From Deltaproteobacteria bacterium (lineage in GTDB: Bacteria; Myxococcota_A; Polyangia; Polyangiales; Houyiibacteriaceae): a stretch of 64,000 nt of DNA. The notes below the pieces were generated by a model that saw only the letters and a program-made list of their open reading frames with translations, was not told the origin of the DNA and ran no database searches. Of the stretch, positions 17,982 to 38,352 are shown piece by piece (positions within the stretch are counted from its first letter, which is position 1; each line of letters opens with the position of its first letter). The translations under genes were made by a program, and so were the position numbers. The stretch covers positions 87,440 to 151,439 of the forward strand of contig JAXMNT010000014.1 of assembly GCA_034670305.1 (NCBI GenBank). The letters run 5' to 3'.

Positions 17982-18081
17982 GCGTCTTCCCATCCCAGCG
18001 GCGGTGAATTGGCCAAGAGTCCGGTGAAAGACCGCTCTCGACAACGCTTGGAGCCGACGCTCGCGCCTCCGGGATCGTCGC

Positions 18082-18558: not shown

Positions 18559-18652
18559 GCGTGCTCCCCGATGACCCACGCGCGGTGGGTGTTGGTCGAT
18601 GGTCCAGGGAAAGACCCTTCTCGGCAAGCATGTCTTGGGATAGACGGTCGCG

Positions 18653-20480: not shown

Positions 20481-20555
20481 GCGTTCATCCTCGGTGTCTC
20501 GGGTCATGGCCGCCCGAGCCTAGCACTGCCGACCGCCCACGCGATCCGCCAGCTT

Positions 20556-21949: not shown

Positions 21950-22774
21950 ATGGATACCCCCACCTTGACTCGATTGCTCTGCGTCAGCGCCCTCGCCCTC
22001 ACCCTCTTTGCTTGCACAGACGACACACCCACATGCGGTGTCGTTGGTTCCACCCAGACTTGTGTCTGTCCCGGCGGGGCGTCGGGTGCCCAGACATGCC
22101 AAGCCGACGGCACGTTCGGCGTGTGCAGGTGTTCGGGGATGGACGCGGGAGGCAGCGTCGATTCGGGTACGGATGCCGCGTGCATCCCCAGCTGTGGCGC
22201 ACGTGTGTGTGGCGACGATGGCTGCGGTGGGGTGTGTGGTGAGTGCACGGCGCCCGAGACATGCTCGCCGGGCGGCACCTGTGCGTGTGTCCCCAGCTGC
22301 GGCGGCGCCGCGTGTGGAGCGGACGATGGGTGTGGGGGCGTGTGCGAAGAGGGCACCTGCTCGGGCGACGCGACCTGCATGGCGGGTGCGTGCATGATCG
22401 AACGCTGCTTGACCGAGTGCATGGATGCAATCCACTGCGACGCCGCCCTCGAAGATTCCTACTCGTGCCTCTACTACCCAGACGGAGTTCAGGGAGGCTG
22501 CACAGGGTTCATGCGGGATCCATCGAACCCGAGCTGCGAGTTCGAAGCTTGTCCAGAGGGCTTCACGTGCCGCGGCTTTGCGTGCAACCGCAACTGTGAG
22601 ACCGCGGCGGACTGCGGTCCCGGCCAGACGTGTGTGGGCGTCAACGGCCCACCCACCCCTTCGGTCCCGAGACACTGCGCGGTCCGGCTGACGGTCCCGC
22701 CCGAGAGTGGCCCGTGTGGACCGGACGGGAGCTGCGCCGACGGCACCCAGTGCCAGGCCGTCCCCGCGCCTTAA
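21950..22774 (+). CDS. Cys-rich lipoprotein
   Basis: LFAC lipobox; CIPSCGARVCGDDGCGGVCG repeats typical of myxobacterial surface proteins. Confidence 0.8.
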   Translation: MDTPTLTRLLCVSALALTLFACTDDTPTCGVVGSTQTCVCPGGASGAQTCQADGTFGVCRCSGMDAGGSVDSGTDAACIPSCGARVCGDDGCGGVCGECTAPETCSPGGTCACVPSCGGAACGADDGCGGVCEEGTCSGDATCMAGACMIERCLTECMDAIHCDAALEDSYSCLYYPDGVQGGCTGFMRDPSNPSCEFEACPEGFTCRGFACNRNCETAADCGPGQTCVGVNGPPTPSVPRHCAVRLTVPPESGPCGPDGSCADGTQCQAVPAP

Positions 22775-23829
22775 GCCTCGCGCGCTTCGGCCGCCGGTTG
22801 GGTCACGCCGTCGCGGCTGGCCCACCAGTCGGCGAGCACCGGCCAGAGCTTGCGGTGCGCGCTCGAGCTCACGACCGCGCCGACGTGCCCGCCCGGCAGG
22901 TGGGTGTGGGTGAGGTCTTCGCTGGATGCGCGTTCCACGAGCGGCAGCGCGCTCTTCTTCGGCACGATGGTGTCGTGTTCGAACGTGAGCACGTGCATCG
23001 GCATCGCCAGCGTTTCCAGATGCACCGGGTGCCCGTCGAGTTCGAGGGTGCCGCGCATGAGCGCGTCCTCGCGGTAGAACTTCTGCACCCACGCGCGGAA
23101 GAGTTCGCCGGGCAAGGACACGTTGTCGTTCGCCCAGCGCTCCTTCGCGAAGAAGCCATCGAGCATGTCGTCGGTCCACTCCGCGTCGTGGCGCGCGCGG
23201 CCGAGCAAGAACATCGCCTTCGAAGGCGAGAGTAGAGGCTGCGCCAAGGTGAACGCGGTCTGCAGGAGCGTGGACGGAGCGTTGCCGAGCCCGCCGACGA
23301 ACGCATCCACGTCGAAGTCCGGGTGTCGGGTCCAGCGCGCGAGCACCGTGTCGTCGTCCTCGAACGCGACCGGTGCCGCGAGCGTGGTCAAAGACGCGAT
23401 GCGCTCCGGATGCACCGCGGCGTGCACCGTGGTCAGCGTGCCGCCCATGCAGTAGCCGAGAAGGTGTGCCTTCGGTGCCCCGCTGTGTTTGCACGCGCGG
23501 CGGAGCACACGGCCGATCGCCGTGCCGACCAGATCGTCGAACGAGGTGAACCGGTCCTCCGGCGCGGGCTGGCCCCAGTCGACCACGTAGACCTCGTGGC
23601 CGCGCGCGACGAGCCACTCGACCAGGCTGCGTCCGGGCGCGAGGTCGAGCACGTACCAGCGGTTGATGAGCGAAGGCACCATGACGATCGGCGTCTGGTA
23701 CCGGCGCTCGGTCGGCACGAAACGCAGGAGGCGCCAGCGGCGCTCGGCGTGCACGACCTCGTGACGGGTCTGCGCGACCTCGGGCTTCGGCCGGCGCAAG
23801 AGCCCGGCGAGGTTCTTCCACATCGCCAT
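22771..23829 (-). CDS. phaC: PHA synthase PhaC subunit (class III/IV-type size)
   Basis: PIVMVPSLINRWYVLDL, YVVDWG, GYCMGG (catalytic Cys), HDTIVP, GGHVG. Confidence 0.88.
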   Translation of the reverse strand: MAMWKNLAGLLRRPKPEVAQTRHEVVHAERRWRLLRFVPTERRYQTPIVMVPSLINRWYVLDLAPGRSLVEWLVARGHEVYVVDWGQPAPEDRFTSFDDLVGTAIGRVLRRACKHSGAPKAHLLGYCMGGTLTTVHAAVHPERIASLTTLAAPVAFEDDDTVLARWTRHPDFDVDAFVGGLGNAPSTLLQTAFTLAQPLLSPSKAMFLLGRARHDAEWTDDMLDGFFAKERWANDNVSLPGELFRAWVQKFYREDALMRGTLELDGHPVHLETLAMPMHVLTFEHDTIVPKKSALPLVERASSEDLTHTHLPGGHVGAVVSSSAHRKLWPVLADWWASRDGVTQPAAEAREA

Positions 23830-23831
23830 GG

Positions 23832-25526
23832 TCAGCCCGGCTCCTCGTAGAGCGCCGCGAGCCGCTCCCCGAAGCGTTCGTAGATCGCCTTGCGACGGAT
23901 CTTCAACGTCGGGGTGAGCAGCCCGTCTTCGACCGTGAGCGGCTCGTCGATCACCGCGAACTTCTTGATCGTCTCGAACCGCGCGAGCTGTGCGTTGACC
24001 CGATCGATGCGGGACTGAACGAGCGCGTCCCGCGCGGCCAGCCGTTCGTCCGCCGCGACGCCGTCGAGCTTCTTGGCGATCGCGGCCTCGTCGATCCAGA
24101 CCCCCGCCACGAGGTACTTGCGCGCGTCGCCGTAGACGACGACCTGGGTGACGTAGGGGTCGGCGGCGAAGCGGGTCTCGATGTTGGTCGGGGCCACGTT
24201 CTTGCCACCCGCGGTCACGAGAATGTCCTTCTTGCGGCCGATGATCTGAAGGAAGCCGTCTTCGGTGAACCGGCCGAGGTCGCCGGTGCGAAAGAAGCCG
24301 TCTTCGTCGAACGCGGCCGCGGTGGCTTCGGGGTTGTCGTGGTAGCCGCCGAAGATGCTCGGCCCGCGCGCGAGGATCTCTCCGTCGTCTCCGAGTTTGA
24401 GCTCGACCGAAGGAAACGGCTTGCCGACCGAGTCGAAACGAAACGCGCCCGGCCGGTTGAGCGTGAGCGTGGGCGAACATTCGGTGAGGCCATAGCCCTC
24501 GAGCAGGAGCACATCCTGCGTGAAGAAGAAGTCCTTCACCCCGCGGTCGAGCCCCGCGCCGCCGCTCAGACAGAACCGCAGCCGGCCGCCCGTCACCCGC
24601 GCGAACTCGGTCGCGGCGTCCGGCGCCTTCTGGGACCACGTCGCGAGCTTCTCCCATACACTCGGCACACTCATGAAGACGTGCGGGCGCACCCGCGGAA
24701 GGTCGTCCATCACTTGCTTCGGATCGCTCAAGTAGCTGACCCAGCCGAGCTGGTTGCCGGCGCCCGCTTCTCCGTAGCCGAAGATGTGGCTCATCGGCAG
24801 CCAGAGCAAATCCACCGCGCCTTCGTCGAGTCGCTCGGCGTTGTTCTCGAGCCAGTCGCGCCCGTTGACGCCGACGTTGCGGTGGGTGAGCGGCACCCCC
24901 TTCGGTGGTCCGCTCGTGCCGCTGGTGTAGAGCATGATCGCCGGCTGATCGAGGTCGATCGCCGCGAGCTTCGCGTCGAGCGCGCCCGGATCCTCCGCCG
25001 CGACGGCCGCGCCTTTGGCACGCAGCATCGACCAGGTGAGCACCCGCTTCGCAAGCGCCGGCACCCGCTCTTCGAACCCGGCCCGAAGCCGCCCGGCGAG
25101 CCCGTCCTCGAAGACGACGAACGCGTCCACGTCGGCGCAATGCTCAGCCGCTTCGACGATGCGGTCGATGAGCGGCGCGGTGTCGACGAAGAGCACCTTG
25201 GCGCCGCTGTGCCCCACCACATACGCCGCCTGTTCGGCGGTGCTCGACCCGTAGATCGGCACCATCACGCCGCCGGCGGCCTGGATGCCGAGCGCGGCCG
25301 AGAGCCACTCGACGCGGTTGGGCGCGAAGATGCACGCGCGGGCACCCGGTGCGATCGGCAGGCCGAGCGCGACGTCGCGGATCTGTTCGGCGAACGTGCG
25401 CCAGGTCACCGGCTGCCAGGCGTCGCCGTCGGGCACCATGAACCGCGCCTGCTCGCCGCGCGCTTCGAGGTGGTCGAAGATCACCGCGGGGGCGGGACGG
25501 ATCGCGAGGTAAGGAGAGACGTCCAT
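23832..25526 (-). CDS. Long-chain acyl-CoA synthetase (AMP-forming)
   Basis: [48 protein letters not shown]. Confidence 0.93.
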
Positions 25527-25527
25527 C

Positions 25528-25869
25528 TCACGCTCCGTCGGTGGAGGCGCCGCGCGCGGCTTCGAGATCCTCGAGCTTCTCTTCGAGGTCGATGAGCCGG
25601 CTCTGCAGCTCGTCGATCGCACGCAGGGTGCGGACTTGGTCTTGCTGTGTCGCCAGCCCGAAGCCGCCCCACCAATCGCGCAGGAAACGCTGCTGCTTGC
25701 GCTGCGCCCGCGTGACCAAACCAAGCACTTTGCCGGCCGGTGCGAACGTCGAAGCACTGCCGAGCATGGACTCGAAGAGGGGGGCCGCGGCGGTTTCCCA
25801 GGCGCGGTAGGTCTGCTCGAAGAGCGACCAGGGATCGGGGGTCTCGTGCGGGTCGTTGGGCTGGGTCAT
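25528..25869 (-). CDS. Short PhaE-like PHA synthase partner subunit (putative)
   Basis: GLATQQDQ...[18 protein letters not shown] coiled coil resembles the PhaE C-terminus; co-transcribed with phaC. Confidence 0.6.
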
Positions 25870-25892
25870 GGGTCTCGTACCTGGTTGGCGAA

Positions 25893-26732
25893 TCACTCGA
25901 GGGAGAGGCGGCGCAGCTCGCTGGCCACGTCGAAGTCGGGGTTGGTCTCGTCGGGGCGGCTGGTGGCACGCGCGACCTCGCCGAAGCACTCGAAGAGCCA
26001 GCTCACCTGGCGGCGGCTGGTCGGTGCGCCGACGGTCGGTTCCACGGTGACGCGGGTGTCGACGCGGTGCGCTTGGTCGAAGCTCAGGTCGGGCAGCTCG
26101 AGCCGCCCGGTGCCGACCACGCGCACTTCGTAGACGTCGCGTCCCGCGTAGGGCAGACCGAGCAGGGTGCCGCCCGACACCTCGCCAACCGACACGTGTT
26201 CCGAGCCGGCTTCGATCGGGAAGCGGTAGAGCAGCACCGGCGCGGTGTAGACGAGCAAGGTCTGTCCGGAAGCCGGCGCCTCTTCGCGGCTCGCGACACC
26301 GTGCAAACGCAAACCGTCCGGGTCGTGGGTGTAGACCCCGAGCGTGTTGCCCGCCGCGTCCACCGGCGCGGCGAACTCACCAGCCGGGAACGAGTCCGCG
26401 AACCAGTGATCGCCGAGCGCACTGGCTTCGATGCGGGCGATTCCGTCGTCGGCGAAGTCGAGTGAGAGGTCCCAGACCCGCTGCTCGTCGATCACCGTGC
26501 CGACCACGTTCACGGCGCGCTCGGTGCCAGGCGGGTTGACGACCAGCCCGACCGGGATGCCGAGCGCCGGTTGGATCTCGACCGCGTCGATGCGGCCGTC
26601 GAGGTTCGGGATGCACTCGAGCCCGCCCGCGTCCGGACCGACGAATGCGTCGCGGATGGGGAAGGTCTGGTTGGTATTGCAGGCGAGCAAGAGCAGCCCG
26701 GCGAGCGCGACCGTGGGGGTTCGGAACGTCAT
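25893..26732 (-). CDS. Lipoprotein of unknown function (paralogue of 29520..30476)
   Basis: LLAC lipobox; CIPNLDGRI, WDLSLDF, WF, GVAS, FP, ECFGEVA blocks. Confidence 0.8.
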   Translation of the reverse strand: MTFRTPTVALAGLLLLACNTNQTFPIRDAFVGPDAGGLECIPNLDGRIDAVEIQPALGIPVGLVVNPPGTERAVNVVGTVIDEQRVWDLSLDFADDGIARIEASALGDHWFADSFPAGEFAAPVDAAGNTLGVYTHDPDGLRLHGVASREEAPASGQTLLVYTAPVLLYRFPIEAGSEHVSVGEVSGGTLLGLPYAGRDVYEVRVVGTGRLELPDLSFDQAHRVDTRVTVEPTVGAPTSRRQVSWLFECFGEVARATSRPDETNPDFDVASELRRLSLE

Positions 26733-28405
26733 CAGTAGTGCAGTCCCAGTCGGAAGCGGAGCAGCTGCGCGGGTTTCGCGTCGAGGCCCGCGCTCGGGTT
26801 GTCAAAGGCAGCGAATGGAAAGAACGCCGCGTACTCGATCGCGGCGACGAAGCCGTTCGTGGTGGTGTAGGCGAGCGTCGGGTCGAGCTCGATGCCGAGC
26901 GGGCGCGCACCGCTCGGCGTGCTGGAGGCCTGCGCCGCAAACGACGCGATGACGGCGAGGGAGAGATCGAGGCGGCCGGGTCCGACCTCGGCCAGGCGGA
27001 TGCGGCCGTGCGGCCTCAGGTAGATGGTGTCGGTGACGGTGCCGAGGATCTCTCGGAAGAGGATCCGGTCGATGCGGTAGTCGGGATGAAACCGGAAGTT
27101 GTCGACGCGGGTGTCGAAGGGCGCGGACGCCTGCGGTCCGTCGATGTCGCCGGCCACCGGCGCGGGTGCGTTCGGACCGCCGTTGCGTGCGCCGAGCTGC
27201 GCACCGAATCCGGGCGAGGGATCGCCGCTCGCGTAGCCCGCGTCGAAGCCGGCTGCGACGCCGCCGGTCTGCACGCCGTGATCGGGACCGAACTCGGACT
27301 CGAACGCGAGCCCGAACTGGCGACTCGTGAACGCGTCCCGCAACTCCACGCCCGGAATGAGCGAAGGCTGACCGATGCGGGCGCCGAGGTACGCCGCTTC
27401 GAGTTCGATGCGCCCGGTCGGAAGCGTGAGCCGCGCCCAGACGTCCACCGCGGTGGCCCGGAAGTCGCGCGGGGTGACCTGCGCGCCGTCGATGGCGACG
27501 GGGCTCGCGACCGGGAGGTAGTGCGCCGGCACGTCGCGGTCCTGCCAGCGGTGCGACACGTACGCGCCGTACTCGAAGCTCGGCTTGCCGGCGCGCGCGC
27601 GGCGCCGGCGCGCGACATCGGAGTGGAAGTCGAGCACCGCGAAGGTCACCGTGCGCACATCGTCCCACGGGTCGAGGTCGACGGCGCGGCGGGGGTGGTT
27701 GCGCGGGGTGCTCGGACCGGTCGCGGTGAAGTCGTAGCTGATCGCCCACACGTGGCCGAGCAGCGGCGTGAGGAAGGCGATGCGATCGGCGGCGTCGCCG
27801 CTGTCGCAGCTCGCGCAGTCTCCGCCGTTGGCGAGCATGCCGAGGCCCCAGTGGTTGCCCATGCGCCCGAACGCGAGCAACCCGAACGGGGTCAACACCT
27901 CGCCGTACGCGCGTTTGATCCGGATGGGCTCGCGCGCATCGCGTTGCGACACCGCGACCGAAGGCACCCCGTCCGGTTGGGAACCGAGCGAGAGGTTGTC
28001 GAGTCCGTCGAGGCGGATTTTGATCGCCACCGACGCGGCCGGCACGATGAGCGCGATGTCGGTGCGCAAGCGCATGTCCGCGTGGGTCAGCGTCTGCGCG
28101 TTCGGGTCGGAGAGCGGCACCGGGAAGAGCGCCTGACCGCTCGGGCTCAGCCCGCGGTCGAGGTCGAGGTTGTAGAGCAACTCGAAGCGCGCCCGAAGCG
28201 CGCCCGAGAAGTGCACGGTGGTCTCGGCTTCGGACTCGATGTCTTGGCCGATGTCGGTGAAGCCGGACGCCTCCGCGGGCGACGCAGCCGCCAGCACGAG
28301 GAGCACGGAGAGCACGGCCCACGGGCACGCGGTCCTTGCGGTCCGTGCGGTCCGCATGGGGCGCGCGCGCCGCGGCTGCGCGAACGATGGACGCAGATCG
28401 ATCAT
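26732..28405 (-). CDS. Outer-membrane beta-barrel, TIGR04551-like
   Basis: IKRAYGEVLTPFGLLAFGRMGNHWGLGM, GYASGD, NFRFHPDYRIDRILFREI, terminal aromatic (LHY); start uncertain. Confidence 0.75.
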   Translation of the reverse strand: MIDLRPSFAQPRRARPMRTARTARTACPWAVLSVLLVLAAASPAEASGFTDIGQDIESEAETTVHFSGALRARFELLYNLDLDRGLSPSGQALFPVPLSDPNAQTLTHADMRLRTDIALIVPAASVAIKIRLDGLDNLSLGSQPDGVPSVAVSQRDAREPIRIKRAYGEVLTPFGLLAFGRMGNHWGLGMLANGGDCASCDSGDAADRIAFLTPLLGHVWAISYDFTATGPSTPRNHPRRAVDLDPWDDVRTVTFAVLDFHSDVARRRRARAGKPSFEYGAYVSHRWQDRDVPAHYLPVASPVAIDGAQVTPRDFRATAVDVWARLTLPTGRIELEAAYLGARIGQPSLIPGVELRDAFTSRQFGLAFESEFGPDHGVQTGGVAAGFDAGYASGDPSPGFGAQLGARNGGPNAPAPVAGDIDGPQASAPFDTRVDNFRFHPDYRIDRILFREILGTVTDTIYLRPHGRIRLAEVGPGRLDLSLAVIASFAAQASSTPSGARPLGIELDPTLAYTTTNGFVAAIEYAAFFPFAAFDNPSAGLDAKPAQLLRFRLGLHY

Positions 28406-29523
28406 CGCGTGCCCCACGGGTTGCGGCCGGTGTCGCTCGGTTCGTTCGCGGGGGCATCCGATGTTGGGTCCGATGGATCCGCAGTGTCCGGGTCGGCGGT
28501 CGGGCCGTCGCCCAGGTCGGGCCGCGGAGCCGGAACCGTCTGCGCCTGCGGCGGTTCGGTGGAACGCGCGGTCGAAGTTTCGGTGGCTTCGCCCGGCTGC
28601 AGGAACGCCAGCAGGTCGCGGGTCGAAGGACGGGCCGCTTCGATCATCGGGAAGTGTCCGCAGAGCGGATAGACCTCGAGCCGCGCGTTCGCCAGATCGT
28701 TGGAGAGCCGTTCGCCCACCTCGAGGGTGGTCACCGCGTCTTCGCGTCCCCAGAGCAGCAGCACCGGCTGTTCGATCTCCCGGTAGTGCGTTTGCTGGGT
28801 CTCGAAACGCATCGCCCGAACCGACGCCAGCGCCGCGGCGCGGGTGCCCGGCCGCCGAACTTGCGCCTCGACTTCCTCGACGAGCGCCTGCGGGATGATC
28901 TCCGGGTCGTGGAACGCGAGCGCGATCTTGTCCTCGGTCCGCTCCGCGTAGAAGCCCGCGAAGATCATCTCGCCGACACCGCGCGCACGGGCCCAGTGAA
29001 ACGTGGTCGGCAGCTGCTCGGCGTACACCCACGCGTCGTAGAGTGCGATGCGCTCGACCCGTTCGGGCGCGACGAGCGCGACCTTGAGCGCGATGGACGA
29101 CCCGTAGGAGTGGGCGACGAACGCGGCGCGATCCACGCTGCGGGCGTCCATGAGCGCGAGCACGATGCGCGCCTGCTCTTCGGGGGAGTAGTCGCCCGCA
29201 GGCCGGCCGCTGTGGCCGAACCCTTTGAGATCGAGCGCGAGCACCCGGTAGTCGTCTCGCAGCGCTTGCCGCACGCCGGTCCAGACGCCGATGGAGCTCG
29301 CGAAGCCGTGGACGAGCACGACGACCGGCGCGTCCCGCGGGCCCTCGTCGACGTAGCGGATCGAAGTGCCGCGCAACGTCAGGAAGGTCGCCTCGTCCGG
29401 CGACTCGGGCAGCGTGCCCGCGTGGTAGGGCAGACAGCCGCTCAAACTCACCAGCGTGGTGAGAGCGGCGAGTCCGAACCGGACCGACCTCCCTCTCCGA
29501 GCACGCGTCGCGGCACCGGTCAC
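28402..29523 (-). CDS. Alpha/beta hydrolase lipoprotein
   Basis: LSGC lipobox; VLVHGF, DLKGFG, AHSYG nucleophile, WGRED, CGHFP. Confidence 0.88.
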   Translation of the reverse strand: MTGAATRARRGRSVRFGLAALTTLVSLSGCLPYHAGTLPESPDEATFLTLRGTSIRYVDEGPRDAPVVVLVHGFASSIGVWTGVRQALRDDYRVLALDLKGFGHSGRPAGDYSPEEQARIVLALMDARSVDRAAFVAHSYGSSIALKVALVAPERVERIALYDAWVYAEQLPTTFHWARARGVGEMIFAGFYAERTEDKIALAFHDPEIIPQALVEEVEAQVRRPGTRAAALASVRAMRFETQQTHYREIEQPVLLLWGREDAVTTLEVGERLSNDLANARLEVYPLCGHFPMIEAARPSTRDLLAFLQPGEATETSTARSTEPPQAQTVPAPRPDLGDGPTADPDTADPSDPTSDAPANEPSDTGRNPWGTR

Positions 29524-30476
29524 GGCGCGAGCCTGCGGACTTCGGCGAGCTCGATGAGCTCGTCGCCGTCGTCGTTGTCGTTGCCGGTGAGCACTGCGAC
29601 CGTTCCGAAACACTCGGTGACGAGCGCGAAGCTGACTTTGGTGGTCACCGCGAAGCCCACGGTGCGGCGAAGCTCGGTGCGGACCCGCAGCACATCGAAG
29701 CGGCCGAACGGCGTGACGAGCGTGCCCTCCGCATCGACCTCGCTCGAGTACGTCTCGGTGTAGTTGCTGAAGATCCCAAGCGCGAGGCCACTGACCGTCA
29801 CGTCGCTCTCCCAAGAGGCGCCGAGCGAGAGCGGAAACTGCAGCACCGAGACCGCCGGGTCGTTCTCGAGGTTGGTCCGGTCGAACCCTTCGTCGGGCGA
29901 GACCACCCCACGCAACGAGAGCGTGCTGCCGTCGACTTCGAAGACGCCGAGCAGGTCGCTCTCGAGGCTGAGCGGGGTCACGTACGTCGCGCCGGGATAG
30001 TCCGAGTCGAACCACTCCCCGCTCGGGTCCGCGGTCTCGACGAGCACCATGCGGTCGCCGGTGAAGTCGGCGCTCAGATCCCAAGTGCGCACGCCCTCGA
30101 CCATCGTGCCGGCGGTGTTGAACGCGACGTCGGTGGCGCCCCGAAAGGTGGCCCGCAGGCCGGCGCGGATCGGGACCTCGGCGCGTTCGATGATCCCGTC
30201 GCGGTTGGGCGCGCAGACGATGCCGCCGCCGTCGCCGGCGTCCATCGCCGGCGCGTCGGCTGCCGGTGCGTCGACCGCCGCGTCGACGGCTTCGGGGGCG
30301 TCGGGCTGGAACGCGTCGCCGGCGCCAGCGTCGGCGTCGACCGGCACGCAGCGACCATCGGCCATGCAGATGCCGGACGCGCAGTCGGCGCCGACGGTGC
30401 ACTGGCGCCCACTGTTCGCGGCGCACGCGCCCACGACCAAGCCCAGCACCACCCCGATCCACCCGTGCACGTTCAC
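29520..30476 (-). CDS. Lipoprotein of unknown function (paralogue of 25893..26732)
   Basis: GGAGG SD; VVGAC lipobox; CAPNRDGII, WDLSADF, WF, GVVS, FP, ECFGTVA blocks. Confidence 0.8.
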   Translation of the reverse strand: MNVHGWIGVVLGLVVGACAANSGRQCTVGADCASGICMADGRCVPVDADAGAGDAFQPDAPEAVDAAVDAPAADAPAMDAGDGGGIVCAPNRDGIIERAEVPIRAGLRATFRGATDVAFNTAGTMVEGVRTWDLSADFTGDRMVLVETADPSGEWFDSDYPGATYVTPLSLESDLLGVFEVDGSTLSLRGVVSPDEGFDRTNLENDPAVSVLQFPLSLGASWESDVTVSGLALGIFSNYTETYSSEVDAEGTLVTPFGRFDVLRVRTELRRTVGFAVTTKVSFALVTECFGTVAVLTGNDNDDGDELIELAEVRRLAP

Positions 30477-30516
30477 CCGACACCTCCATCGACCTTCGCA
30501 CGTGCAGGAGAATCTC

Positions 30517-30618
30517 TTGCGCAGTGCAGCGAGGCCGAACGCCGACGAAATACGGGACGTTCCGAGCACTGTCAACCAGATTGTTGCAACGCACAATGCT
30601 CGACCTTGCAGCGCAGCA
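30517..30618. promoter_or_regulatory. Cluster of PhaR-type operator boxes in the divergent promoter
   Basis: TTGCGCAGTGCAGC 30517-30530, TTGTTGCAACGCACAA 30581-30596, TTGCAGCGCAGCA 30606-30618. Confidence 0.7.
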
Positions 30619-30641
30619 CGAATCCCGCTATCACCCTCCCC

Positions 30642-31184
30642 GTGATCATCGTCAAGAAGTACAGCAACCGGCGCCTCTACGACACCGACCAGAGCCGCTA
30701 CATCACCCTGGACGAGCTGGCCGAGCGCATCCGCGCCGGAGACGACGTGCGGGTGGTCGACGCGAAGACCGGCGACGACCTCACCCAGCCGGTCCTTGCG
30801 CAGATCATCCTCGAGAGCCGCGGCGCGGCGAAGCTCTTGCCCGCCACGCTGCTCGCGCAGCTCATCCGCATGAACGACGAGGATCTCTCGAATTTCATGG
30901 GACGCTACATGTCGTGGGCGCTGGAGATCTACTTCCAGGCGAAACGCGGCGCCTCCCATCTCGGACCGCTCGGAGGACTCGCGCAAGCACCGTTTCAAGC
31001 GACGAGCGCGATGGCGCGCATGCTTCAGGGCATGGGCCCGTGGAACATGCCGGGCATGCGGCCGCCTGGGGTGACGCCGACCCCACCGGTCGCACCCGAA
31101 CCGCCCGCCGATCAGGTCGACGACCTGGCGACCCTGCGGCGCGAGATCGAAGCCCTCAAAGAAGCGATGGGGACCAAGAAGTGA
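30642..31184 (+). CDS. phaR: PHA synthesis repressor PhaR-family DNA-binding protein
   Basis: IVKKYSNRRLYDTDQSRYITL...VVDAKTGDDLT..VLAQIILE signature. Confidence 0.93.
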   Translation: MIIVKKYSNRRLYDTDQSRYITLDELAERIRAGDDVRVVDAKTGDDLTQPVLAQIILESRGAAKLLPATLLAQLIRMNDEDLSNFMGRYMSWALEIYFQAKRGASHLGPLGGLAQAPFQATSAMARMLQGMGPWNMPGMRPPGVTPTPPVAPEPPADQVDDLATLRREIEALKEAMGTKK

Positions 31185-31200
31185 GCGCACGCACAAGAGT

Positions 31201-31215
31201 TTGTGCACCGCAACA
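31201..31215 (-). promoter_or_regulatory. PhaR-type box upstream of phasin-like gene
   Basis: Reverse complement reads TGTTGCGGTGCACAA; TTGACG -35-like hexamer at 31224. Confidence 0.7.
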
Positions 31216-31311
31216 TTTCTGTCTTGACGGGAGGCCTTCCGCGACCCAACTTCGGCTCGCCGCGACAGCGAACTAACGATTTTCACGAACAAAGCGCGGC
31301 AAGGAGACCTC

Positions 31312-31590
31312 ATGGACCCGATGACGCAGATGCAGCAGAACATGGCCGCTCAGGCCCAGGCGATGATGACCGACACGGTCACGAAGTGGTGGAAGACCGC
31401 GCTCGAGACCCAGGTCGCGCAGATGAACGCGATGCTCGTGGAGCTCGGCAAAGTGGAGACGAAGGGCGTCGAGCAGGCCGGCACAGCGATCGACGAAGTC
31501 GCGCGGCTTGGCAAAGCGGGCCTCGAAGCCAGCGCACAGCTGCAAGCGGCTTGGCGCCGCATCGGGCAGCAGGTGATCGAGAAGGTCTGA
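31312..31590 (+). CDS. Phasin-like small amphipathic helical protein (putative)
   Basis: AGGAG SD; Ala/Gln-rich helical 92 aa; follows phaR and a PhaR-type box. Confidence 0.65.
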   Translation: MDPMTQMQQNMAAQAQAMMTDTVTKWWKTALETQVAQMNAMLVELGKVETKGVEQAGTAIDEVARLGKAGLEASAQLQAAWRRIGQQVIEKV

Positions 31591-31696
31591 GCGAAGACCG
31601 GGTCGCCTCTCGAGGCCGCCCGGAAACCCACCGCCGACGCGGGCCGGTCAGCGGTCCGCGTTCGTGCGTTCCATGTGTTGCGAGAGGAGAGACGTC

Positions 31697-32443
31697 GTGC
31701 AGTTGAAAGACCTGAGAGTGATCGTGACCGGCGGTGCGTCGGGCATGGGCCGCCACTTCGCCGAGCAGCTTCACGCCGCGGGCGCGAAGGTCGCCGTCGG
31801 TGACGTGGACGAGGCGAAGCTCGCCACCTTGCCCGAAGGCATCCACCGCGAACGCCTGGACGTCTCGAACGAAGACGAGGTCGTGCGTTTCGTGAAGTCG
31901 GCGGCCGACGCGATGGGCGGACTCAACGCGCTCATCAACAACGCCGGCATCCTGCGCGACGGCTTGCTCGTGAAGAAGTCGCGCAAGACCGGCGCGATCG
32001 AGAAGATGTCGCGCGCGGATCTGGAGAAGGTCTTCGACGTGAACCTGACCGGCGCGATCTTGATGGTCCGCGAAGTCGTCGGCCACATGCTCGAACACGA
32101 CGCCCAGGGTGTGATCGTGAACATCTCTTCGATCGCGCGGCACGGTTCACGCGGTCAGACGAACTACGTCGCGGCGAAGGCCGCGCTCGCCGCGAACACA
32201 GTGACCTGGATGCGCGAGTTCAGCCGCCACGGCATCCGGGTCGGCGCCGTCGCCCCCGGCATGGTCGAGACCCCGATGACCGACGGCATGCGGGACGACG
32301 CGCGCGATCGCATCGTCGCGTCGATCCCCCTCGGCCGCATCGGCACCCCCGAAGACATCTGGATGGCTGTGCGTTTCATCTTCGAATGCGACTATTTCAC
32401 CGGGCGAACCATCGACGTCGACGGTGGCGGTGCGATGGGGTGA
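31697..32443 (+). CDS. SDR oxidoreductase (FabG/PhaB-like)
   Basis: TGGASGMG, NNAGILRD, NISS, YVAAK, PLGRIG. Confidence 0.92.
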   Translation: MQLKDLRVIVTGGASGMGRHFAEQLHAAGAKVAVGDVDEAKLATLPEGIHRERLDVSNEDEVVRFVKSAADAMGGLNALINNAGILRDGLLVKKSRKTGAIEKMSRADLEKVFDVNLTGAILMVREVVGHMLEHDAQGVIVNISSIARHGSRGQTNYVAAKAALAANTVTWMREFSRHGIRVGAVAPGMVETPMTDGMRDDARDRIVASIPLGRIGTPEDIWMAVRFIFECDYFTGRTIDVDGGGAMG

Positions 32444-33381
32444 CCGAGACTCCTTCCCCACGAATCCGCCGGACCGCGGCGACGCCTGAGACATCGCCGG
32501 CTTCGAGCCAACCCACCTTGGCCAGCCTGGCCCACCTGACGCGCGGGCTCCCGCCGCTGCAACAGATCACGCTCGGCAAGTTCCGGATCGCGTACCGCGC
32601 CAACCTCACCGGCCGGGGCGAACCGCTCCTGTTCGTGCACGGGCTCGGCAGCTCGCACCTGGTGTGGGCACGCGCGCTGCCGCTCCTCGGTCGCCCTTAC
32701 GTGGCAGTCGACCTCCCCGGCTACGGCGAGAGCGACAAACCACGCTACGGCTACACGCTGCCGTTCTACATGCGGCGGCTGACGCGCTTGCTCGATGCGC
32801 TCTGCATCGAGCAAGCGACGTGGGTCGGTCATTCGATGGGCGCCCAGATCGCGGTGCTCGCCGCACTGGAAGCGCCCGCCCGAGTGCGCGCGCTGCGGCT
32901 CTTCTCCCCGGCCGGCTTCGAGACCTTCGATGCGTCGCAGGCCGACGTGCTGCGCGCGCTGACCACCGTCGGCAAGGTGCGGAACGCGCGCCGCGCCCAG
33001 GTCGAGAACGCGATGACCATGGGGTTCTTTCGCCGCCCCGCCGAAGCCGATGCGCTCGTCGCCAGACGGATGGCATTCCAGGGCGCGGAACTCGATGGCT
33101 ACGCGCACGCGTTCAGTCGATCGGTCCGCGCGATGCTGGAGGCGCCGGTGCTGCACCGCTTGAGCGAACTCGAGGCGCGAACCCCGACTGTGCCCATGTC
33201 GATTCGGCTCGGCGCCGAGGACCAGCTGGTCCCGAGCCGACTCTTCGGTGCCGCTTCGCCCGCGACACTGCTCGAGTCCATCCGAGACGAGCTCCCCGAC
33301 GCCGAAGCGGCCTTGGTTCCGGAGGCGGGCCACCTGCTCCCGTTCGAGCGGCCCGAGATCGTGGCAGAGCTTTTGGCGTGA
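32440..33381 (+). CDS. Alpha/beta hydrolase, cytoplasmic
   Basis: FVHGLG, DLPGYG, GHSMG, EAGHLLP. Confidence 0.88.
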   Translation: MTETPSPRIRRTAATPETSPASSQPTLASLAHLTRGLPPLQQITLGKFRIAYRANLTGRGEPLLFVHGLGSSHLVWARALPLLGRPYVAVDLPGYGESDKPRYGYTLPFYMRRLTRLLDALCIEQATWVGHSMGAQIAVLAALEAPARVRALRLFSPAGFETFDASQADVLRALTTVGKVRNARRAQVENAMTMGFFRRPAEADALVARRMAFQGAELDGYAHAFSRSVRAMLEAPVLHRLSELEARTPTVPMSIRLGAEDQLVPSRLFGAASPATLLESIRDELPDAEAALVPEAGHLLPFERPEIVAELLA

Positions 33382-33390
33382 CCCGGGTCG

Positions 33391-33425
33391 TGCTGCAACG
33401 CACAATAGATTGTTGCGGCGCACAA
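33391..33425 (+). promoter_or_regulatory. Tandem PhaR-type boxes upstream of symporter
   Basis: TGCTGCAACGCACAA 33391-33405 and TGTTGCGGCGCACAA 33411-33425 (20-bp period). Confidence 0.72.
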
Positions 33426-33462
33426 ATCGACGCGCTACACCCTTTTTCGGAACGGAGACGGC

Positions 33463-34956
33463 ATGGACAACTCGATCGCATGGGGGGCGTTTGGCCTCTA
33501 CCTCCTGGTGACCACCGGCCTCGCGGTGCGCGGCATGATGAAGACCACCAGTGGCAGCATCGAGAGTTTCGCGCTCGGCAACCGCGACATGGGCCCGCTC
33601 TTGGTCGGGGTGACGCTCGCCGCCGCGATCGCCAGCACCGCGACCTTCGTCATCAACCCGGGCTTCGTGTGGAAGGACGGCCTCTCGTCGCTCCTGCACT
33701 TCGGGGTGGCCGGCACCCTCGGCGTCGTGGTCGGGCTCGTGCTCTTGAGCCGCGGCTTTCGCCGGCTCGGTGAGAAGCACCGCGCGCTCACGCTGCCGCA
33801 CTGGGTCGGCGCACGCTTTGGCAGCCGCGGCATGCGCACCTACTTCGCGGGTTTGAACCTCGTGCTCGCGATCGCGTTCGTGGTGCTCATCGTGAAGGGC
33901 TCCGCGCTCGTGATGTCGAGCACCCTCGGCCTCTCCTACGCGACCAGCGTCTTCGTCGTCATCGGCTTCGTCTTCTCGTACATCCTGCTCGGCGGCACCT
34001 ACGCGCACGCCTACACGAACGCGCTGCAGGGTTCGATCATGCTGGTGGTCGCGCTCGCGCTCATCGGCAGCGGCGTGCACCTCTTCGCCGACGGCGGGGT
34101 CTCCGGTTTCTTCGCCGCGCTCGAAGCGCAGGACCCGGCGCTCGTCGCGATGACGAACCCGAACAGCCCGGTCGCAGGCAGCTTCTTCGAGGTATTCGTC
34201 TGCGGCTTCGTCGTGAGCTTCGGCCTCGTCTGTCAGCCGCACATCTTGATGAAGTCGCTCTACCTGCGGAGCGAGAAAGACCTGAACCGCTACCTCGTGG
34301 TCGCAGCCCTCGTCGGCGTCGGTTTCGCGCTCGTGCTGCTCGTCGGTTTGTTCGCGCGGGTCGCCTACCCCGAGCTCGCGGTCGGACCGGAAGCGATCAC
34401 CCAGGACGCGGTGGTCCCGGTCTACATCCAGCACGCGTTCGGCAGCACCGCCGGCGCGCTCATCAGCGTCGCGCTCTTGGCCGCCGGCATGAGCACCATG
34501 GACGGCATCCTCGTCTCGGCCTCGACCATCGCCGGCAACGACCTGGTCCTCGGTCTCGTCGGAAGCCGCGTCGCAGAAGAAGAGCGCCCCGCCCTCGCCC
34601 TGCGCGCAAGCCGCGTGCTGCTCGTGCTCATGGGCGTCGTCTCCTTGGTCATCGCGCTCGACCCGCCGGCCGTCGTCGGCCTCTTCGCGTTCGCCGGCAT
34701 CTATGGCCTCGTCGCGGCATCGGTCGCGCCGGTGGTCTTCGGCATCTTCGTCGACCGCACCCCACCCCGCTGGGCATTCGCCGCGTCGATCGTCGGCCCC
34801 GCCGTGCACTTCGTCCTCTACCTCGGCGTCGGCGTGACCAACCCCGCCGTCACCGGCACCTTCGGCGTCGTCGCCGGCTGCGCCGTCCTCGGCCTCGGCG
34901 TCCTCCTGCAACCCCAGCCCCTCACCGAATCCGCCGCGGTCGCCGAAGGCGCCTGA
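33463..34956 (+). CDS. Sodium:solute symporter (SSS family)
   Basis: Polytopic; FALGNRDMGP, ASTATF, AAGMSTMDG motifs; GGAG SD. Confidence 0.92.
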   Translation: MDNSIAWGAFGLYLLVTTGLAVRGMMKTTSGSIESFALGNRDMGPLLVGVTLAAAIASTATFVINPGFVWKDGLSSLLHFGVAGTLGVVVGLVLLSRGFRRLGEKHRALTLPHWVGARFGSRGMRTYFAGLNLVLAIAFVVLIVKGSALVMSSTLGLSYATSVFVVIGFVFSYILLGGTYAHAYTNALQGSIMLVVALALIGSGVHLFADGGVSGFFAALEAQDPALVAMTNPNSPVAGSFFEVFVCGFVVSFGLVCQPHILMKSLYLRSEKDLNRYLVVAALVGVGFALVLLVGLFARVAYPELAVGPEAITQDAVVPVYIQHAFGSTAGALISVALLAAGMSTMDGILVSASTIAGNDLVLGLVGSRVAEEERPALALRASRVLLVLMGVVSLVIALDPPAVVGLFAFAGIYGLVAASVAPVVFGIFVDRTPPRWAFAASIVGPAVHFVLYLGVGVTNPAVTGTFGVVAGCAVLGLGVLLQPQPLTESAAVAEGA

Positions 34957-34966: not shown

Positions 34967-35950
34967 TCAGCCGAACGGCGAGCGCTGGTAGTTCGGCCCC
35001 ACCCACACCGGCTGCGCCTGCGCCAAGACGCGCACAGAGAACTCCGCTGCTTCGGCGATGGTCTCGCCATCCAGCGTGGCGCCGAGCGGCTCGCCGATGA
35101 CTCGGACCCGCAGCGACCGCACGGCACGGCGCTCTATCTCGGGATGGTCGACGAGCTGACCGAGCCGGGCCTCGCCCGCGATGCGCGCGAGCGACGCCAT
35201 CGAGGTCGCGTTCACGACCAACACATCCAAGAGGCCGTCTTCGGCGTCCGCTGTGGTGGCGAGTTCGAAACCGCCACCCGCGAACCGACCATTCAACACG
35301 GTGAGGGCCGCGACCTCGAACCGTTCCTCGGCACCTTCGTCGAACCCGAGTTCGATCACCCACTGCGCGTCGGAGGCGGCCTTCGCGCTGCCGACGAGGT
35401 ACGCGAGCGGGCCGAGCGTCTTCTTCAGCGAACCGTCGATCGCTTCGCCGATGCGGTGCGCCACCCCGAAGTTGAGCACGTTGATGCCGACCCGTTCGCC
35501 GCTTGGGGTCTGCACTGCGATCAAATCCAGCGCATGCGTCCGGTCCGACGACTGACGGCCGAGGTTCTCGGCCAGCGCGACCAGCGCCTGAACCGCCTCG
35601 CCGGTCTCGAGGGGCAGACCCAAGGTCCGGGCGAAGTCGTTGCCGGTCCCGAGCGGAAGCACACCGAGCACGCTCGACGAGCCCGTCTCACCCGAGCCCG
35701 CGCGCAACCCAGACAGGACGTCGTGCACGCTGCCGTCTCCGCCACCGGCGACCACCACCGGGACCCCGGCGGCCGAGGCGTCCGCCGCGGCCTGCGTCAT
35801 CGCGCCGCTGGAGTCTGGGCGCGCGACGTCGAAGTGCGCCTCGAGCGCGGACAGATGGGGCGCGAGCGTCTCGAACCCGCTGGCGTGATCGTTCAGCAGC
35901 ACCAGCGGGCGCGATGGGCCCGATCCGGAACTCGAAGAAGCCGAGGTCAA
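34967..35950 (-). CDS. Diacylglycerol/lipid kinase family (YegS/DgkB-like)
   Basis: LNDHASG, GGGDGS, LPLGTGNDFAR, NGRFAGGG, LDGE; TTG overlaps upstream stop. Confidence 0.88.
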   Translation of the reverse strand: MTSASSSSGSGPSRPLVLLNDHASGFETLAPHLSALEAHFDVARPDSSGAMTQAAADASAAGVPVVVAGGGDGSVHDVLSGLRAGSGETGSSSVLGVLPLGTGNDFARTLGLPLETGEAVQALVALAENLGRQSSDRTHALDLIAVQTPSGERVGINVLNFGVAHRIGEAIDGSLKKTLGPLAYLVGSAKAASDAQWVIELGFDEGAEERFEVAALTVLNGRFAGGGFELATTADAEDGLLDVLVVNATSMASLARIAGEARLGQLVDHPEIERRAVRSLRVRVIGEPLGATLDGETIAEAAEFSVRVLAQAQPVWVGPNYQRSPFG

Positions 35951-38352
35951 CTGGCGGAGAGGCTCACGTTCAAGGGGATGCTGCCGCCGTCGGTGACCGT
36001 GACCATGCGGGTCATCGGTACGAACCCCTCGGCGGAGACTTCCACTTCCCAGGTGCCCGCGGGCACGCCCATGAAATTGTAGTTGCCGGTGCCGTTCGTG
36101 AGCTGGTCGGACACGATGCCGCGGTTGATGCGCACCCGCGCGCCGGAGATGGCCGCACCACCCGCCGCGTTGACGACCTGACCGACCACACCCCCTGCGC
36201 CCGGGTCGTCGCCGATGCGTACCTGCCGGTGTCCGCCAAGACGGGTGAGGTACCCGCGCGTGTCGATCGCGACGACGTGCAGGACCCAGAGGCCGTCGGC
36301 CAGACCGCTGCGCAAGAGTGTGGTCTGCGTCACGGGCAGGTAGGTGTCGGCCGCGGTCGGCACGGTGTCGCCGTAGTGATCGAGCACGTAGTAGAACCCG
36401 GTGTAGTTCTCGGGACCGTTGGGCGTCGTCCACGCGAAGAACGCGTCGCGGTTGGCAGACCACGCGGTCTCGGACGGATGGCTCGACGAGCTCATGCCGG
36501 GCGGCGCAGTGTTCAGCCGGATTCGAAAGCCGGTCTCGACGGTGCCGACCATCGAACTGGGATCGACCGACGCGACGTGGAAGTAGTTGTCGCCGGACAC
36601 GAGCTCGTCGCGGTCGACGCTCACGGTGTCGGTGCTCGCGAACGTGCCGATCGCCGGCGTCGGCACCCGGTGCTGTTCGTTGCTCAGCAGCCAGTAGTAG
36701 CCGAGGCGTCCGGGGAACGCGCGGTCCCAGGCCACCGTGACGAAGGGGAAGTCGTCGTTGTAGTAGAGGTCCGAATCGGGATGGGTGCTCGAGCTCGGGT
36801 CGAGCGGCGGCAGGAGGCCTTGGGTTTCCACTGCACCGGCCAGCGTGCCGGTCACCGACCGGGACTCGCCGGAGAGGATCTTGATCCGGCCCTGTCCACC
36901 GGTGCCCCCGTACGTGCCGGAACTGATGCCGGCGCCAGCCGCGCTCACCGAACCACTGACCTCCACGATGTTGGCCGCGAGCAAGACGCCGCCCCCCGCG
37001 CCGCCTCCGGTGGAGAGCCCGCTCGAGCCCTCTGCGCGAACACCCGGCACACCATCCGCGGTGATCTGCCCCGACACGTCGATGGTGCCCGTGGCGATCA
37101 ACCGAAGCCGGCCACCGCCCGGTGAACGAGGCGACGTGCTTCCGCGCACATCGCCGCCCGGACCGCCTTGGGCGACGGCGGAGTCTTGGGCGGAGCCGAA
37201 CGGGCGCCCACCGCTGCTGCACGCGCGTCCACTGCTGCCGATCGGTCCCCGCGTCCCCGCGGTGCCGTACCCACCCCCGGTGCCGCCGTGGAATCCGCCC
37301 GTGCAGAACTGGCCTTGTTCGCCCATGCCGTCCGGCCCGAGCCCGGACGCGCTGACCCCAATGGATGCGCCGCTCTCGACCGTGATGCTGCCGGCGCGAA
37401 TGGTCAGGTCGCCCAGAGAGGAACTGAGCGTGACGCCGCTGCGCACGAGCACGTCCCCGTCGACGTAGATCTCGCCGTTCAGATCCATGTTGGTCGCGAT
37501 GTCGAGCCCGTCCAGCGCGCAGGTCCCGTAGGCGCAGAAGGTGCCGCAGGTTTCCGTCGCGCTCCACGACGCGCCGCCCGCGTCGCAGGTCTCGACCATG
37601 TCGCCATTGCAGCGCCGGTCGCCGGGTTCGCACGCGCCGGTGCAGAGCCCGGCCGCGCAGCCCGTGCCGCAGGTGCGCACGTGCAGCCATGCGGTGCCAG
37701 CGCTGTTGCACGCCTCGGACACGCTGCCGTTGCAGCGGTATTCGCTCGGGGTGCAGGTGACTTCGGTCACGCACTCCCCCGCCGCGCAATCGATCGCGCA
37801 GGCCTCGTCGAAGACGAAGGTGCCGCCACTGCAGACCTCGGCCGTGCTCCCCACGCAGCGGCGTGCGGTCCCAGTGCAGGTGTCGCCGCCGCCGTCCACA
37901 CCGCCGCCGTCCACGCCGCCGCCGTCCACGCCGCCGCCGTCCACGCCGCCGCCGTCCACGCCGCCGCCGTCCACGCCGCCGCCGTCCACGCCGCCGCCGT
38001 CCACGCCGCCGCCGTCCACGCCGCCGCCGTCCACGCCGCCGCCGTCCACGCCGCCGCCGTCCACGCCGCCGCCGTCCACGCCGCCGCCGTCGGTGTCACC
38101 CACGCATCCCATGCCGACCTGGCAGGTGAGCTCTCCACCACAGACGGCGTCGACCGGCGTCCAGTTGCAGAAGCTGTCCACCCCGCAGGTGTCGACCGTG
38201 CACTCGAAGCCATCGTCGCAGTGCGCATCGGTCGTGCACGGCTCCCGATCCGGCGGCACGTCGTCGTCGCCACACGCGATCAGAAGCACGCCGGCCAACA
38301 GGGTGGAGGCGACACGGGGAAGACGGGAGAGAAGTGGCAGAAACCGGTTCAT
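35947..38352 (-). CDS. Cys/Gly-rich lipoprotein with VDGGG linker and C-terminal carboxypeptidase-regulatory-like domain
   Basis: LIAC lipobox; Cys repeats; duplicated SSSHP modules; ISGARV..TNGTGNYNF.GVPAGTW. Confidence 0.85.
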   Translation of the reverse strand: MNRFLPLLSRLPRVASTLLAGVLLIACGDDDVPPDREPCTTDAHCDDGFECTVDTCGVDSFCNWTPVDAVCGGELTCQVGMGCVGDTDGGGVDGGGVDGGGVDGGGVDGGGVDGGGVDGGGVDGGGVDGGGVDGGGVDGGGVDGGGVDGGGVDGGGDTCTGTARRCVGSTAEVCSGGTFVFDEACAIDCAAGECVTEVTCTPSEYRCNGSVSEACNSAGTAWLHVRTCGTGCAAGLCTGACEPGDRRCNGDMVETCDAGGASWSATETCGTFCAYGTCALDGLDIATNMDLNGEIYVDGDVLVRSGVTLSSSLGDLTIRAGSITVESGASIGVSASGLGPDGMGEQGQFCTGGFHGGTGGGYGTAGTRGPIGSSGRACSSGGRPFGSAQDSAVAQGGPGGDVRGSTSPRSPGGGRLRLIATGTIDVSGQITADGVPGVRAEGSSGLSTGGGAGGGVLLAANIVEVSGSVSAAGAGISSGTYGGTGGQGRIKILSGESRSVTGTLAGAVETQGLLPPLDPSSSTHPDSDLYYNDDFPFVTVAWDRAFPGRLGYYWLLSNEQHRVPTPAIGTFASTDTVSVDRDELVSGDNYFHVASVDPSSMVGTVETGFRIRLNTAPPGMSSSSHPSETAWSANRDAFFAWTTPNGPENYTGFYYVLDHYGDTVPTAADTYLPVTQTTLLRSGLADGLWVLHVVAIDTRGYLTRLGGHRQVRIGDDPGAGGVVGQVVNAAGGAAISGARVRINRGIVSDQLTNGTGNYNFMGVPAGTWEVEVSAEGFVPMTRMVTVTDGGSIPLNVSLSAS
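37885..38090. repeat. 15-bp coding VNTR (about 13-14 copies, encodes VDGGG)
   Basis: (CCGCCGCCGTCCACG)n nearly perfect. Confidence 0.95.

Follow-up and report, generated by a model that had tools for sequence, protein, structure and literature searches.

Why should genes of the cell envelope stand in one operon with genes for a storage polyester? Operons for polyhydroxyalkanoate (PHA) are known as cytoplasmic systems. The question is raised by a 64,000-nucleotide stretch of contig JAXMNT010000014.1 (positions 87,440 to 151,439, hereafter the window) from a Deltaproteobacteria bacterium of the Myxococcota, whose genome assembly (GCA_034670305.1) comprises 7.9 Mb and is 96% complete. Two lipoproteins, a lipoprotein hydrolase and an outer-membrane barrel, together termed the envelope module, are tied there to the PHA synthase gene phaC by position, by co-presence across genomes and by a conserved operator. 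The cluster is real and widespread, and seems to be a form of PHA storage operon not described before, in which an envelope module stands behind a conserved promoter of PhaR type; no account of it, nor of the barrel family TIGR04551, was found in the open literature, subscription journals and bioRxiv supplements lying outside the search. We think it modestly probable that in this conserved storage cluster the envelope genes form an inward supply line for acid esters.

Open reading frames (ORFs) and Pfam/NCBIfam profiles place all 12 genes of the cluster at the positions and on the strands where a sequence-only reading of this DNA had put them. The minus-strand run reads lipA–hydA–barrel–lipB–small ORF–ligase–phaC, with junction gaps from lipA to phaC of −4, −4, −1, +23, +1 and +2 bases, values that depend on the start codons chosen. 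Diverging from this packed run, as that reading had described, the plus strand carries phaR, a phasin-like gene, a short-chain dehydrogenase/reductase (SDR), a second hydrolase (hydB) and a symporter, separated by 127, 106, −4 and 81 bases. The stretch is found as one piece in two DNA contigs, possibly the source itself, and the hydB–symporter junction is spanned by approximately 91% identical contigs from two other runs. For window positions 24001-34000, pieces again approximately 91% identical come from two marine runs. Four runs that contain the stretch in full carry the label plastic metagenome; since they may be the source, no weight is placed on that label.

When GTDB genomes were searched with the barrel, 239 relatives were confirmed, all within the Myxococcota, and the best 80 loci were used; 20 further regions were hand-picked, with preference for weak matches and with the three genomes lacking a strong PhaC among them, for 100 loci altogether. 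Related genomes in these counts are not independent. Among the best 80 of the 239 loci, lipB was present in 79, hydA in 75, lipA in 73, phaC in 68, phaR in 67, the ligase in 66 and the small ORF in 60; the phasin-like gene (by direct tblastn) and the SDR were each found in 34, the symporter in 10 and hydB in 6. The synteny of TIGR04551-like genes with phaC and phaR, which the sequence-only reading had proposed as a check, is clearest in the 47 barrel loci that have 6 kb of sequence to either side, where phaC occurs in 44, the ligase in 45 and phaR in 46. Even in the hand-picked distant regions, 19 of 20 contained the barrel, accompanied in 16 by phaC and in 14 by the ligase, often inverted or reordered. 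In a census of an even sample of 301 Myxococcota genomes, with the module scored by its lipoprotein family and PhaC at E≤1e-45, the module was present in 82, about a quarter, and a class III-like PhaC in 79 of these 82 as against 48 of the 219 module-free genomes. This plain asymmetry indicates that the module needs PhaC while PhaC does not need the module, which makes the module an add-on. The co-conservation of the envelope genes with phaC, on which the sequence-only reading had staked itself, is thus very strong, and the shared PhaR-type promoter is conserved as well.

That reading had also offered a function to the barrel family as a whole, and here its reach must be narrowed. TIGR04551 occurs in 193 of the 301 genomes, against 82 with the module, and a second TIGR04551 copy in the source genome scores higher (446 bits, on contig C4), with neither PHA nor module genes closer than 10 kb. 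Any function therefore applies to the PHA-linked paralogous subfamily only. The higher-scoring copy (L081:9824-11803, G000 C4) is close to the gene for trigger factor and to clpP/clpX-like genes; contig C47 (L083) carries three weaker paralogues of the barrel.

How the two halves of the cluster are connected is most apparent in the region between lipA and phaR. The PhaR-like regulator (30642..31184, plus strand) matches PF07879 (94 bits) and PF05233 above cut-off and falls just under that of TIGR01848 (99.8 vs 109.45). Facing the minus run is a predicted σ70-type promoter (30547..30575, minus strand) composed of TTGACA at 30570-30575, a 17-nt spacer and TATTTC; a strict promoter scan of the window found nothing, since the −10 box ends in C. 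In 47 phaR–lipA intergenic regions (46 loci and the window, directly divergent, with gaps of 40-330 bases), TTGAC is present on the lipA strand in all 47, compared with a mean of 7.3 in shuffles and 1/47 on the opposite strand. The core TGCRNYGCA occurs in 40 of the 47 regions, with 65 sites vs 2.1 in shuffles, and agrees with published PhaR sites (PMC6201568, PMC12849132). Thirty of the 65 stand 18-21 nt ahead of the −35 box, an arrangement that has been reported for the phaP1 promoter (PMC12849132), and a second group lies 38-50 bases after the box.

In the window itself, sites at 30582, 31201, 33391 and 33411 give 8 strand matches against 1.24 expected and were equalled in 0 of 100 shuffles. 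The operator at 30582..30596, just upstream of the −35 box, is the best site of the whole genome by position weight matrix (PWM), with a weaker second site at 30603-30619; another (31201..31215) precedes the phasin-like gene, and two in tandem (33391-33405 and 33411-33425, PWM 19.0 and 22.0) stand before the symporter. The three best matrix scores of the entire genome all fall in the locus, one of them before the symporter, and a PhaR-type site precedes 38 of the 40 phasin-like genes with room for one. These motif matches predict a single small PhaR regulon that takes in the envelope run, the phasin-like gene and the symporter, and the lipA–phaC run is probably co-transcribed; terminator predictions in the window were at chance level (6 vs 6.8). 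A second PhaR-domain gene, at G000 C11:35654-36280, could read the same sites. PF07879 is far commoner among the 301 genomes (269) than class III-like PhaC (127, E≤1e-45), which suggests that one PhaR-domain copy has a PHA-independent role.

What kind of PHA machinery would this predicted promoter drive? PhaC (22771..23829, minus strand, 352 aa) exceeds the cut-off of PF07167 and scores 242.1 bits against TIGR01836, below its cut-off of 365.3, a threshold reached in 0 of the 301 Myxococcota genomes. Its Cys-Asp-His triad, C127-D286-H315, is retained in 71 of 71 group members, and it aligns with the solved PhaC structures 5hz2/5t6o (E 1e-26). It is nearest to class III synthases and is predicted to polymerise (R)-3-hydroxyacyl-CoA. 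In quick trees, the PhaC beside the module belongs to several clades, and the ligase slot is filled by two distant, well separated ones. The small ORF (25528..25869, minus strand) encodes 113 aa, about a third of the usual PhaE length, and has no family match of its own; 36 of 44 aligned orthologues match PF09712 at E≤0.1 (best 3.5e-8), so that, judged by its orthologues, it is probably a shortened PhaE (mini-PhaE). The AMP-forming acyl-CoA ligase (23832..25526, minus strand, 564 aa; PF00501 and PF23562) is of the long-chain FadD/ACSL-like type, its best NCBIfam match being FadD11 at 247 bits, below cut-off. By hydropathy, no 19-mer exceeding 1.6 was found in PhaC, PhaE or the ligase, that is, no transmembrane segment.

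On the plus strand, the phasin-like protein (31312..31590, small, helical, 92 aa) matches no Pfam or NCBIfam family, and its label derives from size, position and the PhaR-type site in front. The SDR (31697..32443) is a probable 3-ketoacyl-CoA reductase, close to PRK08217 (285.7 vs 298) and under the cut-off for PhaB TIGR01829 (155 vs 302). HydB (32440..33381; PF00561/PF12697) is a cytoplasmic α/β hydrolase of restricted lineage. Three further observations concern related enzymes. The source genome encodes a 965-aa fusion of a PhaC-like hydrolase fold with an AMP-binding ligase in a PRK07868-like layout (L082:5763-8660, G000 C43). A further PhaC/PhaZ-like Cys hydrolase with DUF3141/PHB_depo_C matches and a small partner ORF adjoins the module or phaR in L010, L011, L013, L016, L079, L092, L093, L099 and L100. 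In one family, an MBOAT acyltransferase lies near the locus (L093:14004-16987, L100:3200-4648), with a GDSL gene too in L093.

The locus contains no thiolase, as the sequence-only reading had noted, and that reading took the missing phaA as a sign that monomers come from outside. This proves to be poor evidence: six TIGR01930 thiolases above cut-off lie on other contigs, one of them in a MaoC-SDR-thiolase cluster on C30, and granule-bound CoA ligase is known without import, as for Acs1 in Pseudomonas putida (PMC11103573). No 3-hydroxybutyrate dehydrogenase or PhaB above cut-off was found in the genome. The thiolases and MaoC proteins elsewhere in the genome lend something to the idea that the envelope genes are co-regulated with storage without supplying monomers, performing another task of the carbon-rich state such as lipid remodelling or vitamin uptake (for example pantothenate for CoA) while monomers arise through thiolase, β-oxidation and MaoC proteins encoded elsewhere. 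MaoC or thiolase genes lie inside a few loci (L013, L090, L095 and L103, the last with a thiolase after the SDR and no ligase), the symporter is nearest to PanF, and PhaR is pleiotropic in other bacteria (PMC6201568). In one family (L086:7632-9038, L087:1983-3401), the module is followed by an uncharacterised protein of 470 aa, a TetR regulator and a thiolase-like gene; both phaC and PhaR-type sites are absent, and the module may have been repurposed. However, module and phaC–ligase stay adjacent despite inversions and gene replacement, usually in one run with abutting codons, and PhaC accompanies the module in nearly every census genome that has it. We therefore regard co-regulation alone as distinctly improbable.

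If the envelope genes do serve storage, in which direction does their cargo travel? The barrel (26732..28405, minus strand, with its start at 28405 or 28357) exceeds the TIGR04551 cut-off (353.4 bits vs 300), and its AlphaFold2 (AF2) model (pLDDT 85.5) has 18 strands. Structure searches point two ways. Foldseek ranks AlgE first (E 5e-15, TM about 0.5-0.6), and in the ESM Atlas the best named match is the Alginate_exp cluster (0.97, 208/256 features). The VIA ranking places uptake porins ahead, namely MOMP (Z 24.2, rmsd 3.6, 339 aligned), OccD2 (22.6) and OpdQ (22.2), with AlgE at 21.8. Modelled fold thus appears to give no transport direction, resembling an exporter and uptake porins alike. 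The predicted lumen, with faces assigned by alternating hydropathy that is ambiguous on strands 4 and 7, carries 15 Arg and 10 Asp/Glu among 66 conserved positions. Such a charged, polar, Arg-lined lumen would suit carboxylates but not an uncharged, greasy polymer. The long loops L3 and L7 are conserved, and turn T8 is short; among 72 barrel members, none matched an OprD Pfam family at E≤0.1, and just one touched PF13372 (E 0.038).

HydA (28402..29523, minus strand) is a lipoprotein α/β hydrolase with an intact Ser-Asp-His triad, C30, S139, D262 and H290 being invariant in all 41 aligned sequences (selected from 57 full-length). Its structural matches include the polyhydroxybutyrate (PHB) depolymerase 8ynv as one among 27 similar ones, and homologue searches with HydA and with the symporter gave automatic names only. 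Its probable location is indicated by natural gene fusions. Five of 94 adjacent hydA–barrel pairs are in frame; L041, L055 and L094 are fusions, occurring in two lineages, that have a Pro/Ala linker and in none of the frames a second signal peptide, and a further genome, G317, has an L094-type fusion (89% over 804 aa). The in-frame readings in L096 and L097 were rejected as fusions on account of an internal signal peptide. HydA forms the N-terminal part of the fused proteins, and the first strand of such barrels begins on the periplasmic side, so HydA likely works beneath the barrel and not at the surface. The sequence-only reading had proposed hydrolysis of prey or environmental PHA or lipid; from the periplasm, HydA would not itself attack prey granules at the surface.

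LipA (29520..30476, minus strand), which has a Cys-rich N-terminal stretch, and LipB (25893..26732, minus strand) are 32% identical over 246 aa (E 3e-26), and a lipobox-like motif is present in 68 of 79 LipB sequences. The all-β AF2 model of LipB (pLDDT 94) finds weak matches: its five top Foldseek hits are all of the YmcC/GfcB-type fold at E 0.012-0.08, i.e. >0.01, and it aligns with 4fvs (Z 9.2, rmsd 4.0, 169 aligned) and YmcC 2in5 (Z 7.3, 6% identity). No real Pfam family was found among 73 members, and the ESM Atlas returned only unnamed Myxococcota clusters, with recognition just below threshold. The lipoprotein family has 812 representatives; in some relatives (L088-L090, L101, L048, P0391, P0392) the domain is repeated two to three times in tandem with small Cys-rich spacers. 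In P0393 and P0394, which are 76% identical to each other, the barrel frame reads on into lipB with the lipB signal peptide kept, which is a hint and nothing stronger.

These envelope proteins could also be arranged for export, in which the module would move a PhaEC-made polyester or acylated oligomer to the surface, the lipoproteins ferrying it through the periplasm and HydA trimming or removing it, as in PgaAB, AlgE-AlgK-AlgL or GfcBCD. The AlgE and Alginate_exp matches speak for this, as does the likeness of the lipoproteins to YmcC/GfcB, known to bind the barrel of a capsule-export system (PMC8592465); other 18-strand barrels serve polymer export in myxobacteria (PMC9603273), a hydrolase beneath the barrel fits too, and PHB 10-15-mers have been reported in pellet-plus-resin extracts of marine myxobacteria, their location unresolved there (PMC6226438). 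Against export, the cluster has no membrane-spanning synthase, no exporter family was found among neighbours common to at least 4 of the 80 loci, the lumen is charged and polar, PhaR and phasin indicate internal granules, PF13372 is all but unmatched by the barrels, and the recurring carriers belong to uptake families. We consider export quite unlikely. Import is modestly favoured by the polar Arg-lined lumen, the lack of an inner-membrane exporter, the soluble synthase and the swappable uptake carriers, and is supported by the uptake porins that lead the VIA barrel matches. The import interpretation of the sequence-only reading stands to that extent.

Which carriers, then, would complete an inward route? 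Among the 100 loci, Na+:solute symporter (SSS) genes occur in 13, major facilitator superfamily (MFS) genes in 10 and SatP-like genes in 4, and never two of these together. This exclusion is not significant by itself, since about 2 overlaps are expected by hand estimate, genomes are related, and L039 and L104 come from the same genome. The MFS gene opens its run, and in 9 of 10 cases a PhaR-type site accompanies it. The SSS protein of the window (33463..34956, plus strand; PF00474, 155 bits) has PanF as its best curated match (138 vs a cut-off of 328), with ActP at 32.7 vs 750. The symporter and second hydrolase that the sequence-only reading built into its route are indeed present in the window, but their sparse recurrence places both outside the core. 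In the close relatives L001, L003, L004, L015 and L027, a FabH-like condensing enzyme separates the PhaR-type sites from the symporter; at that position (33382-33462) the window has just 81 bases, and a search of the genome gave no orthologue, the best match being 31%.

The supply line may be envisaged as follows. Nascent granules would titrate PhaR, lifting repression as in other bacteria, so that supply rises when storage begins. Short, water-soluble esters of hydroxy acids or fatty acids, such as 3-hydroxyalkanoate oligomers set free by cell lysis, would cross the barrel. HydA, anchored under it, would split them, with LipA and LipB binding or handing on the substrate. An interchangeable inner-membrane carrier (SSS, MFS, SatP-like or encoded elsewhere) would take the acids in; the AMP-forming ligase implies free acids, and would make CoA thioesters, with hydroxy acids passing directly to PhaEC and fatty acids via β-oxidation and the SDR. 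Within this supply reading, we lean slightly toward hydroxyalkanoate oligomers over lipid-derived acids. Import is further supported by the granule-type regulation together with a gene for a secreted PHB depolymerase that immediately follows phaC in 4 of the 80 loci (NF050058 281 vs 150 for L053).

Several points weigh against this proposal. It is built from genes, models and comparisons, with substrate, activity, transcript and complex all inferred. Module loci without phaC in the sequence covered exist (L021, L045, L048, L085, L086, L087), three module genomes (G231, G244, G296) have no strong class III-like PhaC, one of the three carriers is present in only 27 of 100 loci, and the PWM training set of 65 sites includes 2 of the window's own. 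Class III synthases favour short monomers, and the ligase is of the long-chain type. The exporter family of AlgE comes first in the Foldseek and ESM Atlas rankings, and GfcB, to which the lipoproteins are similar, belongs to a capsule-export operon. HydA is below all PHA depolymerase family cut-offs (NF050089 74.5 vs 300; TIGR02240 28.5 vs 250.6), no extracellular PHB depolymerase above cut-off was found in the genome (121 vs 150), and the enrichment of secreted depolymerases is mild (31/82 module vs 45/219 other genomes, the genomes being related). Prey PHB, the substrate suggested by the sequence-only reading, is a weak candidate because no depolymerase exceeds its cut-off, the ligase is long-chain, and the symporter occurs in few loci and is nearest to PanF.

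An alternative is a route in which products of the cell's own PHA turnover (3-hydroxy acids and short oligomers), released at granule mobilisation and possibly shared in swarms, are retaken and re-activated by the ligase. The regulon and topology evidence fits such recapture as well, a passive barrel working in both directions; PhaZ-like Cys hydrolase genes stand directly before the module in L010, L011, L013, L016 and L079, granule-bound Acs1 provides a precedent for the ligase (PMC11103573), and most module genomes have no secreted depolymerase at the threshold used. Recapture leaves unexplained, however, both the two dedicated lipoproteins with their tandem domain expansions and the 4 loci in which a secreted depolymerase adjoins phaC, and it seems to us a slim likelihood.

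A more specific form of the inward supply reading is polyester salvage, in which predatory myxobacteria would admit 3-hydroxyalkanoate oligomers of lysed prey through the barrel, split them in the periplasm, and re-polymerise the intact monomers into granules of their own, past acetyl-CoA and with PhaR-driven positive feedback. We hold this tentatively, as a possible but rather unlikely case. For the supply reading as a whole, PHA storage in Myxococcota is documented: Bradymonas stores PHA during predation (PMC7460792), by a proposed β-oxidation route with FadL (PMC7460792, PMC11509652), and PHB has been detected in Enhygromyxa and Plesiocystis, where the legend to Fig. S19 gives a PHB cluster with no barrel or lipoproteins (PMC6226438). 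If salvage were true, the module would represent the first complex for uptake of PHA fragments across the outer membrane, as well as the first case of storage-to-storage PHA transfer between cells, and with the direct route its channel, esterase and ligase would be parts for recycling PHA into new PHA. More broadly, the cluster gives a testable context to two unnamed families, the TIGR04551 subfamily and the lipoprotein family, suggests how fragments of PHA may get across the outer membrane, and ties predation to carbon storage.

Further genes surround the cluster. A FadL/Toluene_X-type outer-membrane barrel (PF03349) lies at window 18966-20507 (minus strand), 2.3 kb from phaC, and a YegS-like lipid kinase at 34967-35950 (minus strand) converges on the symporter; both were excluded from the cluster, as neither is recurrent in the 80 loci. 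Two short Pro-rich paralogous ORFs stand in tandem at 17544-18792 (minus strand), and positions 35947-38430 (minus strand) encode a secreted protein of 827 aa that has GGVDG repeats and Cys-rich modules.

How does the cluster compare with known systems? With the class III PhaEC system it shares a small Cys-Asp-His PhaC, a probable PhaE-related partner, a PhaR-domain regulator and TGCRNYGCA-type operators beside the −35 box. It differs in a PhaC under the TIGR01836 cut-off, a PhaE of about 100 aa, an acyl-CoA ligase in place of phaAB, and four envelope genes in the run, found for no PHA operon in the literature searched. The modelled barrel shares 18 strands, a predicted Arg-lined lumen, long L3/L7 and Z scores of 22-24 with the OprD/Occ and Campylobacter MOMP uptake porins; identity is approximately 10%, none of the 72 members matches an OprD Pfam family, and here the barrel keeps company with an esterase and two lipoproteins. 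OccD2 and AlgE are within 1 Z of one another, and the long L3 and L7 may fold inward as in the carboxylate channels. AlgE-type, synthase-dependent export of alginate, PNAG or Pel likewise sets an AlgE-like barrel near a periplasmic hydrolase, lipoproteins and a polymerase gene. AlgE has a long T8 turn; in contrast, the barrel here has a short one, there is no membrane-spanning synthase or recurring exporter, and the polymer is a neutral cytoplasmic polyester. The group 4 capsule system GfcB (YmcC)-GfcC-GfcD places a β-sheet lipoprotein of similar fold beside a barrel gene, and GfcB binds both GfcC and the barrel GfcD (PMC8592465), but the folds match only weakly (Z 7.3, 6% identity), the GfcD barrel is far larger, and no Wza/Wzc-type genes are among the recurring neighbours here. 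A functional analogy is offered by the SusCD utilisomes of Bacteroidetes, in which a barrel, lipoproteins and a hydrolase work together in the uptake of polymer fragments; the module described here has no TonB plug, its folds are unrelated and its hydrolase is apparently periplasmic, and the product would be re-polymerised rather than catabolised.

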